Source of the DNA: Escherichia coli
GTDB taxonomy: Bacteria; Pseudomonadota; Gammaproteobacteria; Enterobacterales; Enterobacteriaceae
DNA length: 64,000 nucleotides
Assembly (NCBI RefSeq): GCF_024700885.2
Contig: NZ_CP117016.1
Strand: one strand, 5' to 3'
A program made the translations under genes and the position numbers. Positions 21,337-29,676 of this stretch are shown here, in pieces (position 1 is the stretch's first letter; the number at the start of each line of letters is the position of its first letter). Under the pieces are notes generated by a model. That model ran no database searches. It was not told the DNA's origin and saw only the letters and a program-made list of their open reading frames with translations.

Positions 21337-22001
21337 AACAGTTTAGCTATTGCCCGACACACTCAACGCATCCTCCGTTCTGTTATGACTTTCACTATGT
21401 CAAATCGGGGATGGTCGCCATCTTTGGTGACAACGGCAGTGGCAAAAGTACGCTGGCACAGCTGATGGCGGGCTGGTATCCGGACTTTCTGCCAGGAGAG
21501 ATAACCGGCACGGGGACGCTTCTCGGTACGCCCATTGGGCATCTCCCGCTTAATGAACAATCCGCCACCATCCAGCTCGTTCAGCAATCGCCCTATTTGC
21601 AGCTCTCCGGCTGTACCTTTAGCGTGGAAGAAGAAGTTGCCTTTGGGCCAGAAAATCTGTGTCTTGCTGAAGAAGAGATTATGGCGCGGATTGATGCCGC
21701 CCTGACTCTGACCGAGTGCCAGCCGTTGCGGCATCGTCACCCGGCAACACTCTCCGGTGGAGAGACACAGCGCGTGGTCATCGCCTGCGCCATCGCGATG
21801 CAGCCAAAACTATTAATTCTTGATGAAGCCTTTAGTCGCCTGACGCCGCAGGCCAGCGAAATGCTGTTGCAGCGCTTACAACACTGGGCGTTTGAACGTG
21901 GTTCGCTGATTATTCTTTTTGAACGTCATCGCACACCTTTCCTGAACTACTGCCAGCAAGCGTGGCAACTGCAAAACGGAGCGCTCCAGCCACTATGCTA
22001 A
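21318..22001 (+). CDS. ABC/ECF ATPase component A
   Basis: 227 aa; Walker A GDNGSGKST, signature LSGGETQR, Walker B LLILDEA. Confidence 0.8.
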   Translation: MDMVTLEQFSYCPTHSTHPPFCYDFHYVKSGMVAIFGDNGSGKSTLAQLMAGWYPDFLPGEITGTGTLLGTPIGHLPLNEQSATIQLVQQSPYLQLSGCTFSVEEEVAFGPENLCLAEEEIMARIDAALTLTECQPLRHRHPATLSGGETQRVVIACAIAMQPKLLILDEAFSRLTPQASEMLLQRLQHWAFERGSLIILFERHRTPFLNYCQQAWQLQNGALQPLC

Positions 22002-22672
22002 CGTTAAATCAGATATCTTATCGCTGGCCTGGCGCGGCAACGGATTGTCTTTGCGACATTTCTCTGCAACTCAAACAAGGCGAATGGCTGGCGCTGACCG
22101 GCGACAATGGCGCGGGAAAATCGACGCTGTTACGAGTAATGGCAGGTCTTCTTCCGCCCACAGCCGGTACGGTTATGCTGCAACAACAGGCGATGAAAAA
22201 CCTGAAAAACCGCCAACGTGCAGCAAAGATTGGCGTACTGTTTCAGGAAGCGGAAAACCAGCTTTTTCACAGCACCGTCGCCGACGAGATCGCATTTGGT
22301 TTGAAACTGCAAAAATGCCCGGCGGATGAAATCACTCAACGTACCCATGCTGCCCTGCAATGCTGTCAGTTAGCAGACACTGCCAGCGCGCATCCGTTAG
22401 ATCTGCATAGTGCGCAGCGACGGATGGTCGCCGTCGCCTGCCTGGAAGCACTCTCTCCGCCGCTATTGCTGCTGGACGAGCCGAGTCGGGATTTTGACGA
22501 AAATTGGATGAGCGTGTTTGAAAGCTGGCTGGAAAAGTGCCGTCAGCGAGGCACGAGCGTCATAGCAATCAGTCATGACGCCGCATTTACCCGGCGTCAT
22601 TTCTCTCGGGTGGTGCGACTGGAAGATGGTGTAATCAGGAACGTTAATCCACCAGATGATATTCACCCGTAG
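21995..22672 (+). CDS. ABC/ECF ATPase component A' with degenerate signature motif
   Basis: ORF 21962..22672; likely start MLTLNQISYRW at 21995 (ATGCTAA overlap with upstream stop); Walker A GDNGAGKST, Walker B LLLLDEP, H-loop SHD, signature replaced by LHSAQ. Confidence 0.75.
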   Translation: MLTLNQISYRWPGAATDCLCDISLQLKQGEWLALTGDNGAGKSTLLRVMAGLLPPTAGTVMLQQQAMKNLKNRQRAAKIGVLFQEAENQLFHSTVADEIAFGLKLQKCPADEITQRTHAALQCCQLADTASAHPLDLHSAQRRMVAVACLEALSPPLLLLDEPSRDFDENWMSVFESWLEKCRQRGTSVIAISHDAAFTRRHFSRVVRLEDGVIRNVNPPDDIHP

Positions 22673-23357
22673 CGGTCATCATTAAGGTCAAATTTGCAGG
22701 CAGACTCTCTTCCAGCACCCGGCGAACATTCGGCCCATCGGTACGGTCATAAAAGGCATCTGCGTCTGCCAGCGATAACCCTCCCGCCAGCTTGCGCCCC
22801 ACCAGTCGTTCCCGCAACGCAGTAGCTGGCGCGTTGATAAAGATCGAGAAATCACAAAATTGCGCAAGCTGGCACCACTTCTCGTCGTCCAGCAACAACC
22901 AGTTTCCTTCGACGATGACGAGTGGTGCGGTAACGTGCAACGCATCTTCAACAGGATCATGCTTTTGTCGATCGTACTGTGGCCACGTACAATCCCCTTC
23001 CACGACCTGGCGCAGGTTTTCCGCCAGTTTCGCTACATTGAATGTCTCTGGTGCGCCTTTGAAGGGGCGCAATTGATGCGCATCCAGCCAGCTATTGTAA
23101 TGGTGAAAACCATCCATCGGCAGCGTCTGTATAGCGGGTAGTTCCGGGTCTTGTTGCGCGAGATATTCCCAGAAGGTGGTTAGGGTAGATTTACCCGTCC
23201 CCGGCGGAGCGCAAAGAAAAACCACCGTACGCCGCTGCGGATTTACCGTCTGTAAGGCCGCCAACATGCGCAGCAACGGTTTATGTACATTTTCTATCTC
23301 ATCAACATGGTACTGTGCTTGTACCTTCAGACCATTCACCGTTAATTCAATTTTCAC
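22644..23357 (-). CDS. yggC: P-loop kinase-like protein YggC
   Basis: 237 aa, P-loop APPGTGKST. Confidence 0.9.
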   Translation of the reverse strand: MKIELTVNGLKVQAQYHVDEIENVHKPLLRMLAALQTVNPQRRTVVFLCAPPGTGKSTLTTFWEYLAQQDPELPAIQTLPMDGFHHYNSWLDAHQLRPFKGAPETFNVAKLAENLRQVVEGDCTWPQYDRQKHDPVEDALHVTAPLVIVEGNWLLLDDEKWCQLAQFCDFSIFINAPATALRERLVGRKLAGGLSLADADAFYDRTDGPNVRRVLEESLPANLTLMMTATGEYHLVD

Positions 23358-23863
23358 GGCGTTAATTCCTTTAAGGTGGTCGTTACTGCCAGCGTCAGCG
23401 CCGTTTTGACCATCCCGCTAAAACGCGCCTCTGACCAGACGGCGAAATCGGCGAACTTCATCGCTTTCAACGCGTCATAGAGCGTCGCATTGCGGGTTAT
23501 GCTATTGACGTTGCTGATAAAATCCCAGGTCATATCATCGGCAAATCCGGGCATTTCATTCTGTTCGTTCAGGTAATGCCAGAACTGGGAAAAGTGCGTG
23601 ATATCGGCGTACAGCCATTTATCCATTTTCCCCAGCGCATAAATCAAACGCAGTGCAACATCAATATCGTCAAGCGGGCCGCTTTGGGCGAGTAACGGCT
23701 TCACTGCATATTCGACGATCTCTTCATCGTTATCGACAAACAGCGACGGTAGAAACTGGCGTATCCCCTGGAGCAAAATAGAATGCGCCGTTTTCATAAA
23801 TGAAAATAAATTGTCCTGTGCCTCCAGTTGCTCAAGCACATCATCTTCTGTCAGCGTCGCCAT
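23354..23863 (-). CDS. yggD: MtlR-like regulator YggD (FumE)
   Basis: 169 aa, matches YggD. Confidence 0.88.
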   Translation of the reverse strand: MATLTEDDVLEQLEAQDNLFSFMKTAHSILLQGIRQFLPSLFVDNDEEIVEYAVKPLLAQSGPLDDIDVALRLIYALGKMDKWLYADITHFSQFWHYLNEQNEMPGFADDMTWDFISNVNSITRNATLYDALKAMKFADFAVWSEARFSGMVKTALTLAVTTTLKELTP

Positions 23864-23884
23864 TGGTCTTCCGATAGATCACCA

Positions 23885-24850
23885 TCAATGCAGGGAGTCT
23901 ATTATATTACACGTTTGGTCCGCGCCGCCGATCAGTAATGTCTGCGTCCGCACCCCATTCGCCGTCTGTTGGATACCGTTCACCAACTCGCCGCCCGTCA
24001 CGCCCGTAGCGCTAAAGAGGATATCGTTCCCCCTCACCAGTTCATCGAGCGAGTACACACGGTTAACGTCAACGCCCATTTCCTTGCAACGCTTGCGCTC
24101 CTGCTCTGCAATCTGCCGATTTTCCGTGTAATCCCCTTTAGCCTGACAAAAGTCAATCAGCTCGGCCTGCATATCCCCGCCTAATGCTTTAACGGCACAG
24201 GCAGAAATCACGCCCTCCGGCGCACCGCCGATGGTGTACATCACATCGTAAGGATTATCCTGCCAGCAGGTCAGCACGCTGGCGGCGACATCGCCATCCG
24301 GCAGGGCAAAAACCTTCACGCCCAGCTGTGTTGCTTCCTCAATTGCGGTACTCAGGCGCGGTTTATCCAGCGTAACCATGCGCAGTTTGTCCAGCGGTTT
24401 GCCTAACGCTTTCGCCACGTTTCGCAAGTTGTCCGCCAGAGGCAAAGACAGATCAATCGCCCCGGCAGCCTGTCGATTAACAACCAGCTTTTTCATATAC
24501 ATATCGGGCGCATGTAACAGGCTATCCCGAGGTGCGAAAGCCATGACCGCCAGCGCATTGCTCTGCCCCATCGCCACCATCCGGGTGCCTTCAATCGGGT
24601 CAACCGCGATATCGACTTCTGGCCCATCGCCTTTGCCCACCTCTTCGCCAATCCACAGCATCGGCGCATGGTCAATCTCTCCCTCGCCGATAACCACTCG
24701 CCCACGAAAAGCGACGTCGTTTAATGCCTGGCGCATCGCGGTGACCGCCAGGCCATCAATTTTATTTTTGTCGCCACATCCGGTTTGCGGCCAGGCAGCC
24801 AACGCTGCCTGTTCCGTAACGCGAAATAATGGCCACGCCAGGGACATCAT
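23885..24850 (-). CDS. yggF: fructose-1,6-bisphosphatase class II (GlpX paralogue)
   Basis: 321 aa GlpX-like. Confidence 0.9.
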   Translation of the reverse strand: MMSLAWPLFRVTEQAALAAWPQTGCGDKNKIDGLAVTAMRQALNDVAFRGRVVIGEGEIDHAPMLWIGEEVGKGDGPEVDIAVDPIEGTRMVAMGQSNALAVMAFAPRDSLLHAPDMYMKKLVVNRQAAGAIDLSLPLADNLRNVAKALGKPLDKLRMVTLDKPRLSTAIEEATQLGVKVFALPDGDVAASVLTCWQDNPYDVMYTIGGAPEGVISACAVKALGGDMQAELIDFCQAKGDYTENRQIAEQERKRCKEMGVDVNRVYSLDELVRGNDILFSATGVTGGELVNGIQQTANGVRTQTLLIGGADQTCNIIDSLH

Positions 24851-28374: not shown

Positions 28375-29283
28375 ATGAAAGCACCTGTTTCAATAACCTC
28401 ATTTCGCCCACAAAAATCTATTGCTATCGTCATTGGCGTGCTTGCCGTGGTTGTGCTGCCATTTCTCTCGTATTACACCGTTAATGAAGGTGAACGCGGC
28501 ATTTTGCTGCGCTACGGAAAAATCGTAAAAGTTGCCGAGCCGGGTCTGGGTTTTAAGATCCCTTTTATGGAAAGCGTGGAGAAAATTTCCACGCGTAATC
28601 AGGCTGTGGTTTATCAGGGATTACAGGCCTACAGCCGCGACCAGCAACCGGCACAAATGACAGTATCAGTCAGCTTCCACATTAAACCTTCAGAAGCTGG
28701 CGCAGTTTATACAACCTACAACACCATTGAATCTTTAAAAGAGCGTCTGATCGTCCGCCAGCTGCCAACCCAACTGGAGAACGTTTTCGGGCAATATACC
28801 GCCATTAGCGCGGTACAAGATCGTACGAAACTGGTGCAGGATCTGCAAAACGCGATGCGTAAAGCCGTTGTTGGCCCGGTGGTGATTGATGGTGTTCAGA
28901 TTGAAAATATTGATTTTTCTGACGCTTATGAAAAATCGATTGAAGATCGAATGAAAGCAGAAGTCGCCATTGCCACACGTAAGCAAAATCTGGAAACAGA
29001 GAAAATCCAGGCGCAAATAGCGGTAACTCAGGCCCAGGCAGAAGCAGACAGTAAACTGGCGGCAGCCAAAGCAGAAGCTGAGACTATTCGCGTAAGAGGC
29101 GCGGCAGAGGCTGAAACTATTCGTTTAAAAAGTGCGGCTGAAGCAGAAGCAATCCGCCTGCGCGGTGAAGCTCTGCGGGATAATCCCGGACTTGTAGCCC
29201 TTACCACTGCAGAGCGTTGGGACGGTAAACTGCCCGATACCATGATCCCCGGCAGTACAGTTCCGTTTATCTCTACTAAGTAA
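28375..29283 (+). CDS. SPFH/band-7 (prohibitin/HflC-like) membrane protein
   Basis: ORF 28339..29283; probable start MKAPVSITS at 28375 (AAGGAAG SD); N-terminal TM then SPFH domain; C-terminal 11-aa repeats AEAETIRVRGA x3. Confidence 0.75.
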   Translation: MKAPVSITSFRPQKSIAIVIGVLAVVVLPFLSYYTVNEGERGILLRYGKIVKVAEPGLGFKIPFMESVEKISTRNQAVVYQGLQAYSRDQQPAQMTVSVSFHIKPSEAGAVYTTYNTIESLKERLIVRQLPTQLENVFGQYTAISAVQDRTKLVQDLQNAMRKAVVGPVVIDGVQIENIDFSDAYEKSIEDRMKAEVAIATRKQNLETEKIQAQIAVTQAQAEADSKLAAAKAEAETIRVRGAAEAETIRLKSAAEAEAIRLRGEALRDNPGLVALTTAERWDGKLPDTMIPGSTVPFISTK

Positions 29284-29288
29284 AAAAA

Positions 29289-29654
<366 letters not shown>

Positions 29655-29676
29655 TTCTCACAAAGCATCTTACCGA

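Follow-up and report, generated by a model that had tools for sequence, protein, structure and literature searches.

A convergent gene overlap at the seam of two accessory modules in Escherichia coli: probable old age and passive maintenance, with K-12 as the likely derived state

Genes and gene ends between epd and yggC

The locus considered here lies in a window of 64,000 nucleotides, that is, the whole stretch of Escherichia coli DNA that was analysed (contig NZ_CP117016.1). In this window, epd, which is on the minus strand and ends at 19224, is separated from yggC by five genes on the plus strand. These encode a PCC-domain protein (19596-20027; annotation and profile searches), an ECF S component (20050-20628; annotation, Pfam and NCBIfam), a T component (20629-21336; annotation and Pfam) and two ABC ATPases. 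The first ATPase, A1, is found at 21324-22001 (annotation, Pfam and NCBIfam), and the second, A2, a protein of 225 aa encoded at 21995-22672, is assigned as a further ECF-type ATPase by the Pfam ABC_tran model and by the NCBIfam ECF_ATPase and FtsE-type NBD models. Together with their promoter region, the five genes (PCC-S-T-A1-A2) form an ECF module at 19468-22643 on the plus strand, delimited by its presence and absence across genera, whose counterpart in K-12 amounts to about 40 nt. Upstream of epd, at 19349-19362, lies the palindrome CTGAAACGCTTCAG, which is kept in all genera aligned and which presumably resembles a Cra/FruR operator.

The profile matches of the module are of uneven strength. 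The S component passes the cut-off of PF12822 (35.3 bits against 30.7), and its nearest NCBIfam family is the CD3073 family, of unknown substrate, whose model it matches at 136 bits, under the cut-off of 180. The T component, which PGAP names EcfT, reaches 22.8 bits with PF02361 (CbiQ/EcfT), under the cut-off of 25. Both A1 and A2 match PF00005. Their top NCBIfam matches are ECF_ATPase_1 and ECF_ATPase_2, far under the equivalog cut-offs, and at 225 aa the two proteins are without the C-terminal extension of these profiles of 270-280 residues. A search of Rfam at a permissive threshold over 19000-23600 returned no match, and thus no riboswitch that would hint at a substrate. In the E. coli W genome paper (PMC3032704) the locus was noted as ‘cobalt transport system cbiQ-O2’. 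As judged from the profiles, the ‘cobalt’ label is unsupported, because the S component is nearest to the CD3073 family at a score below the cut-off and no riboswitch is detectable.

On the other side of the module, yggC (22644-23357, minus strand) encodes a P-loop nucleoside/nucleotide kinase family protein of 237 aa, assigned by NF006742 and annotation. It is the last of six consecutive minus-strand genes, cmtB-cmtA-yggP-glpX(yggF)-fumE-yggC in the annotation of E. coli NCTC86, and the run is called here the cmt-yggC operon, its operon status being assumed. Beyond cmtB, the interval up to tkt holds a prohibitin/SPFH-family gene (window 28375-29283) together with a unit of about 174-178 nt that contains REP sequences and is duplicated in tandem (window 29300-29660), of which NCTC86 has one copy fewer than the window; in the Salmonella and Atlantibacter loci the cmtB-tkt interval contains no gene.

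The two runs meet tail to tail. According to the open reading frame listing and the sequence, A2 (plus strand, 21995-22672, within an open reading frame listed as 21962-22672) and yggC (minus strand, 22644-23357) have 29 nt in common, at 22644-22672. The yggC stop codon TAA is the complement of 22644-22646, while the A2 stop codon TAG is at 22670-22672 and is unambiguous; the overlap thus contains the eight final codons of A2 plus 2 nt and the stop and, on the yggC side, the stop plus the eight final codons and 2 nt. The RefSeq/PGAP calls for NCTC86 give the identical pair, namely an ABC transporter ATP-binding protein at 21995-22672 (+) and a nucleoside/nucleotide kinase family protein at 22644-23357 (-). 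This genome is 100% identical to the window over 19000-23900 and 99.5% identical, with several indels, over 4154-29482. The same 29-nt overlap is also present in O157:H7 and in E. coli W/KO11. The convergent overlap of yggC with the last gene of the cluster, as described in an earlier note on this DNA, is therefore confirmed by open reading frames, stop codons and RefSeq annotation. Its remark that the overlap leaves no room for terminators agrees with a terminator scan, which found no consensus intrinsic terminator near the overlap on either strand; in K-12, a scan likewise found no intrinsic terminator 3' of yggC.

The A2/yggC overlap is statistically unremarkable. Nine convergent gene pairs are present in the corresponding 64 kb of the NCTC86 annotation, and two of the nine overlap, A2/yggC by 29 nt and scpC/srsR by 4 nt. 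The latter pair, with scpC on the plus and srsR on the minus strand, overlaps at window 10733-10736.

It might be supposed that the overlap is an artefact of annotation, one of the two genes truly ending earlier, and the overlapped residues of A2 do lie beyond the ATPase domain and are unconserved. The chance of this is practically negligible. Indeed, both stop codons are set by the sequence, YggC fits its family profile to the last residue (an end-to-end match to NCBIfam NF006742, 1-237 of 237, 520 bits), and its C-terminal GEY(R/H) motif is kept in all genera; moreover, no earlier in-frame A2 stop occurs in any genome that has both the cluster and yggC. A sequencing error at 22640-22672 is excluded by the occurrence of the same sequence in many independent genomes. 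A shorter true end of yggC or of the ATPase gene, for which the earlier note had allowed, is thus not found, given the full-length NF006742 match, the K-12 YggC of likewise 237 aa and the unambiguous A2 stop.

Haplotypes in E. coli and the arrangement in other genera

The cluster is carried by 3317 of 5426 complete E. coli genomes, and the segment of the window that holds the 3' ends of A2 and yggC is found at 95-100% identity in 3318 of them. Instead of this segment, 2087-2092 genomes (about 39%, including K-12, B and C) have that of K-12, and about 13 of the 5426 show other states, so that the yggC 3' allele and the presence of the cluster are almost perfectly linked in E. coli. Among the rare states, epd adjoins cmtA in one case through a deletion spanning the ECF cluster and yggC-yggP (match H30), and in another genome (match H55) only 123 nt of the junction query (22400-22893) match, all of them inside A2.

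Comparison of the two alleles places the boundary of the variable segment inside yggC. Over nt 1-464 of the gene, only 21 substitutions, scattered in position, separate K-12 from the window (95.5% identity over nt 1-463), whereas from nt 465 to the stop the identity is 61% at the nucleotide and 65% at the amino acid level, with no length changes. This allele-specific 3' third of yggC (gene nt 465-714; window 22644-22893, minus strand) is delimited by alignments, population linkage and trees, and the jump in mismatches at about nt 465 recurs in six of six pairs of cluster-bearing and cluster-less alleles, including E. albertii against another Escherichia lineage. The right-hand breakpoint is held by a run of 86 nt that is identical in the window and K-12 (22894-22979; K-12 alignment and five further pairs). 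On the left, allele comparisons place the edge at 19428-19467: allele-linked divergence starts at about 19428, and alignable homology between cluster-bearing and cluster-less alleles stops at the motif TTTATTCCA (19459-19467). K-12 thus has about 0.33-0.37 kb in place of about 3.5 kb in the window (about 19428-22893). Within E. coli, the right boundary falls at about 22893, about 250 nt inside yggC and about 220 nt past the overlap, and by the pattern of these alignments it is most likely a homologous-replacement breakpoint and not an insertion junction. The earlier note had looked to an alignment of the yggC 3' end with K-12 for its proposed junction; the variable segment does reach into the 3' part of yggC, but its boundary is at nt 465 and not at the overlap.

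The remaining 5' two-thirds of yggC (22894-23357) are themselves unusually diverse within E. coli, with pairwise identities of 90-96%. The differences cluster at gene nt 31-90 and are independent of the presence of the cluster, which suggests a recombination-rich, mosaic region.

The arrangement extends well beyond E. coli. A cross-genus scan with YggC, using one genome per species, gave 56 loci, which were recovered by peptide patterns, so that absences are soft; three A2 look-ups added Salmonella, Atlantibacter and Klebsiella. The order epd, PCC-S-T-A1-A2 and convergent yggC-fumE-glpX is shared by E. albertii, E. whittamii, C. koseri and six further Citrobacter species, of the freundii/werkmanii group, as well as by Silvania, Phytobacter, two Superficieibacter species, an Enterobacteriaceae MAG (UBA5654), Salmonella serovar Djakarta and Atlantibacter hermannii; A2 is present also in E. 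marmotae and E. ruysiae. In every genome with that order, A2 and yggC overlap. The overlap measures 29 nt in Escherichia, 32 nt in Salmonella Djakarta, 44 nt both in the Citrobacter freundii/werkmanii group and in Atlantibacter hermannii, 26 nt in Silvania, 68 nt in C. koseri, 41 nt in Superficieibacter, 92 nt in the Enterobacteriaceae MAG (UBA5654) and 11 nt in Phytobacter. All these lengths are 2 modulo 3, and hence the two frames stand in equal relative phase everywhere, in at least eight genera (Escherichia, Salmonella, Citrobacter, Atlantibacter, Silvania, Superficieibacter, Phytobacter and that of the Enterobacteriaceae MAG). In addition, the cluster genes diverge from those of Citrobacter in step with the genes that flank them: amino acid identity is about 70% for A2, about 80% for A1, about 80% for T and about 91% for S, against about 76% for YggC, about 85% for FumE, about 86% for GlpX and about 95% for Epd. 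Because the overlap is found in the same phase across genera and the cluster co-diverges with its flanks, the A2/yggC arrangement can be regarded as long-evolved. The opposite claim, that the arrangement is not a long-evolved one, is contradicted by the same-phase overlap in at least eight genera.

Some observations made in the course of this comparison concern individual loci. In Buttiauxella sp. B2 (L049, 1-884), the PCC and ECF S genes are separated from glpX by about 3.6 kb on its upstream side, with the yggC operon standing between them and epd, which indicates that the ECF cluster can take another position relative to this operon. The fumE-yggC segments of Raoultella planticola and Citrobacter braakii (L014 versus L016, 5495-6760) are 85-100% identical and encode an identical YggC C-terminus, a closeness that exceeds the intergeneric expectation and suggests either transfer between the genera or mislabelling of an assembly. 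A glpX-fumE-yggC-epd locus typical of Enterobacteriaceae is present on a contig labelled Chryseobacterium sp. 18061 (L024), and a 4.5-kb contig in a Citrobacter MAG (L004) is 95-98% Escherichia-like; both are probably due to contamination or binning errors.

These data bear directly on the view that the cluster is a recent island in the lineage of this strain, whose right junction inside the yggC 3' end created the overlap. In favour of this view, about 39% of E. coli, K-12 among them, are without the cluster, the sequences of K-12 and the window part ways inside yggC, and the junction is free of terminators. As expected of an island, the cluster is variably present among close relatives (3317 of 5426 E. 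coli); unlike those of an island, its phylogeny and distribution are congruent with the host backbone, the cluster being found at the same site in at least eight genera with a divergence proportional to that of its flanks. The breakpoint in E. coli, 220 nt away from the overlap, also speaks against an island, and so does the lack of mobility genes, tRNA, repeats or GC anomaly. In particular, no integrase or transposase is annotated at the cluster in NCTC86, no tRNA is present in 10-35 kb, and no direct or inverted repeats flank the cluster, the short direct repeats that were found being of chance length (12-20 nt) and none of them flanking it. A 15-nt match of 87% between 19690 and 22885 was likewise set aside as chance, as one copy is at the right breakpoint and the other inside the PCC gene, not at the left edge. 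No compositional anomaly was detected, with a GC content of 0.53-0.59 in the cluster and 0.48-0.58 in the flanks. To these points are added the deletion scars in other Escherichia lineages and the species-tree congruence of the cluster-linked yggC 3' end, which the K-12 one does not have. Taken together, a recent island is very improbable, and the recent insertion scar put forward in the earlier note is contradicted both by the overlap in the same phase in at least eight genera and by the tree of the yggC 3' part.

The scars and the tree deserve closer attention, as they concern the polarity of the change. Independent internal deletions of the ECF cluster are found in Escherichia sp. MOD1-EC7003 (L003, 6714-7306) and Escherichia sp. 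E1V33 (L007, 6714-7354), where the equivalents of window 19620-22423 and 19678-22433, respectively, are missing. What remains in both cases is the beginning of the PCC gene (its first codons) and the last 240-250 nt of A2, together with the overlap and a yggC end of the cluster type. Simple NJ trees (248-463 sites, 200 bootstraps) were built separately for yggC nt 1-463 and nt 464-711. In the tree of the 5' part, all Escherichia group together (200/200). In that of the 3' part, the cluster-linked Escherichia alleles group together (200/200) as sister to Citrobacter, matching the 5' tree, whereas K-12 and the Escherichia lineage L008 form a clade of their own (200/200), which joins the other Escherichia in only 5/200 replicates and falls in with cluster-less lineages, Lelliottia and Huaxiibacter among them. 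The discordance of the yggC 3' tree and the independent deletion scars argue that the ECF cluster is ancestral in Escherichia and the K-12 state derived. The polarity implied by an insertion is thus reversed: it is the K-12-type yggC 3' end that is phylogenetically foreign, and the cluster-bearing state that follows the species tree.

Accordingly framed as a derived state, the K-12 type could have arisen as follows. The cluster-bearing haplotype would be the vertically inherited one, and in the K-12 type the segment of 3.5 kb (about 19428-22893) would have been replaced via homologous recombination, with a distant cluster-less member of the Enterobacteriaceae as the donor; the crossovers would fall within yggC and within the spacer next to epd. 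The outcome would be a chimeric yggC, the final 250 nt of which are foreign. The K-12-type allele occurs also in lineage L008, at 89% identity. The cluster-less arrangement is itself old: L008 is colinear with C. braakii through the yggC 3' end, the spacer and epd, at 76% identity. A protein search with the 82 C-terminal residues of the K-12-type allele returned only E. coli-like fragments and one match of 66%, and blastn against all of the more than 60 retrieved loci showed no match outside Escherichia that exceeded 67%. As no donor was found in these searches, the best match outside Escherichia being 67%, the replacement could be very old, and the haplotypes may represent a long-term trans-species polymorphism. 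Two stronger proposals are unlikely, namely that the haplotypes are an ancient polymorphism kept across Escherichia species by balancing selection, and that the terminator-less hairpin seam described below couples, through convergent transcription, the expression of the ECF transporter to that of the sugar/kinase operon cmt-yggC.

These findings have consequences for how the locus is read. K-12 is not the ancestral reference state at epd-yggC, and where a cluster varies among strains, an overlap at its edge calls for outgroups before it is taken as an insertion scar. Moreover, the chimeric nature of the K-12 gene is relevant for studies of YggC function and wherever K-12 yggC serves as the ‘E. 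coli’ sequence.

The module seam, the A2 tail and the hairpin

The position of the overlap acquires meaning once the two neighbouring modules are considered separately. When C. freundii, which has the cluster, is compared with C. braakii, which does not, homology runs through the whole of yggC to its stop; past the stop, 3.2 kb in C. freundii face 73 nt with a long hairpin in C. braakii. K. pasteurii offers the reciprocal case, as here tktA comes immediately after epd-PCC-S-T-A1-A2 and the yggC-cmt operon is missing; the K. pasteurii sequence is homologous to the window as far as 22624, which is about 20 nt short of the yggC stop. Each module is therefore also found singly, the yggC side in K-12, C. 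braakii and Raoultella and the ECF side in K. pasteurii. Because of the Citrobacter and K. pasteurii comparisons, the ECF and yggC-cmt modules can be said to vary independently and to meet within about 20 nt of the yggC stop. In loci that combine the two, the seam has no terminator from either module and no stop proper to A2. The claim that the overlap marks a boundary thus stands for the seam of the modules, as seen in Citrobacter and K. pasteurii, and fails for the presence/absence boundary within E. coli, which lies about 220 nt away.

The structure of A2 is in keeping with this picture. Its nucleotide-binding domain ends near residue 214 (‘RLEDGVI’, about 22636), a complete FtsE-type NBD model ends at residue 212, and the ends of the domain models fall at about 212-224. 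An alignment across genera indicates that residues 217-225 are an unconserved read-through tail; the tails differ among genera in both length and sequence, and their sole conserved piece, ‘D(I/T)H(P)’, is the antisense of the conserved YggC codons for ‘TGEY’. In K. pasteurii, which is without yggC, A2 has 218 aa and is thus seven codons shorter, ending with ‘...RLEKGRLLSIS’ at a stop of its own, which is followed by a canonical, bidirectional-looking terminator, AAAAAGAAACGGGCCGC...GCGACCCGTTTTTTT. No homology was found between this Klebsiella A2/tktA terminator and the region downstream of tkt in E. coli. Because the K. pasteurii A2, without yggC next to it, is shorter and has its own stop and terminator, the overlapped A2 tail can be interpreted as 3' read-through into the antisense of yggC. 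Since the tail is unconserved, the overlap is most likely neutral at the protein level and adds 8-9 residues past the ATPase domain.

A simple course of events would account for these features. The ECF cluster (PCC-S-T-A1-A2), anchored beside epd, and the yggC-cmt operon abut with no spacer. Without a stop of its own before the seam, the A2 frame continues for 26 nt, antisense to the final codons of yggC, and ends at the first in-frame stop there, which leaves a tail of 8-17 residues beyond the ATPase domain. The uniform phase suggests a single origin of the junction, in an ancestor of the Enterobacteriaceae, after which the length of the overlap would have drifted between 11 and 92 nt through gain and loss of stop codons. 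The original seam could have been formed by insertion of one module beside the other, or by deletion of a terminator-bearing spacer. Collectively, the evidence makes it probable, with good confidence, that this tail-to-tail overlap is old and maintained passively, that it marks the seam of two accessory modules, and that the K-12 state is a derived replacement.

Passive maintenance has to be weighed against the idea that the overlap was selected as a regulatory device, in which convergent transcription and complementary 3' ends would couple the ECF and cmt-yggC operons by antisense pairing, RNase III cleavage or transcriptional interference. The absence of intrinsic terminators fits with this idea, and both operons may end by Rho-dependent or otherwise non-canonical termination inside the 3' coding sequence of the partner, which could yield complementary 3' ends. 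The arrangement also persists across genera without a spacer ever having re-evolved, and the mscL/arfA pair provides a precedent (PMC10070815). On the other hand, each module occurs alone in many genomes, and neither the length of the overlap nor the sequence of the tail is conserved.

A further element of the argument is a 9-bp hairpin, ATGACGCCG-N8-CGGCGTCAT, at 22575-22600 on the minus strand, identified by a structure scan and by cross-genus comparison. On the yggC strand it lies 43 nt past the stop codon of yggC, within the A2 codons for the H-loop (‘HDAAFTRRH’), and it has no U-tract; a regulatory role of the overlap would make it the 3' end of the yggC operon transcript. On the yggC-sense strand, 8-9 of the 9 pairs are kept in Escherichia, Salmonella, Citrobacter and Atlantibacter, with one compensatory change from C:G to T:A, and the G-U pairs favour the yggC-sense RNA. 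The conservation in four genera with a compensatory change supports regulation and suggests that the 3' region of A2 may be under some constraint at the RNA level. In Klebsiella, which is without yggC, the hairpin is weaker. However, it is lost in Superficieibacter and Phytobacter despite the overlap, its location in the conserved ABC H-loop codons means that protein constraint may explain it, and the lack of a U-tract also speaks against regulation. Furthermore, no unusual global structure was found in 161-201 nt around the overlap on each strand, the local fold being no stabler than that of shuffled sequences (z = -0.06 on both strands). On balance, selection of the overlap as a regulatory device is unlikely, and an old overlap maintained passively at the module seam is the preferred interpretation.

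Comparison with known systems

The presence/absence difference at the epd-yggC locus is already in the literature, as it was described between E. coli W and K-12, B and C (PMC3032704). The locus is the same; in that paper it is treated as a strain-specific extra transporter, and the overlap, the chimeric yggC and the conservation across genera are not mentioned. What is modestly new is the chimeric, partly foreign yggC of K-12-type strains.

Mosaic genes are a familiar product of allelic replacement in E. coli, in which homologous recombination brings in sequence from divergent donors. As in these genes, yggC shows a sharp step in identity, from about 97% to about 61%, the trees of its two parts disagree, and an indel next to the step is linked to it. 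Unlike usual mosaic genes, the yggC donor would be unusually distant, further from Escherichia than Citrobacter is, and the K-12-type allele is common to another Escherichia lineage.

For complementary 3' ends, the closest parallel is the convergent mscL/arfA pair of E. coli, for which antisense regulation was shown experimentally (PMC10070815). Like this pair, A2 and yggC are arranged tail to tail, with complementary 3' regions, and are enriched in Enterobacterales; unlike for mscL/arfA, the evidence for them consists of geometry and a partly conserved hairpin.

The origin of the overlap is best compared with the established model of Kingsford et al. 2007, in which convergent overlaps arise by 3' extension, in the form in which the model is cited in PMC3887535. 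As in the overlaps outlined in that citation, genes on opposite strands share their 3' ends, the unconserved tail lies past the functional domain, and extends to the first stop codon met in frame in the antisense of the neighbour; likewise, the orthologue without the neighbour, the K. pasteurii A2, is shorter and has its own stop. Unlike the general cases of 3' extension, at least as summarized there, the A2/yggC overlap can be dated, being found in the same phase in at least eight genera, and coincides with the seam of two modules that are gained and lost independently. The pair thus provides a clean natural example of origin by 3' extension, with the ‘before’ state kept in Klebsiella.
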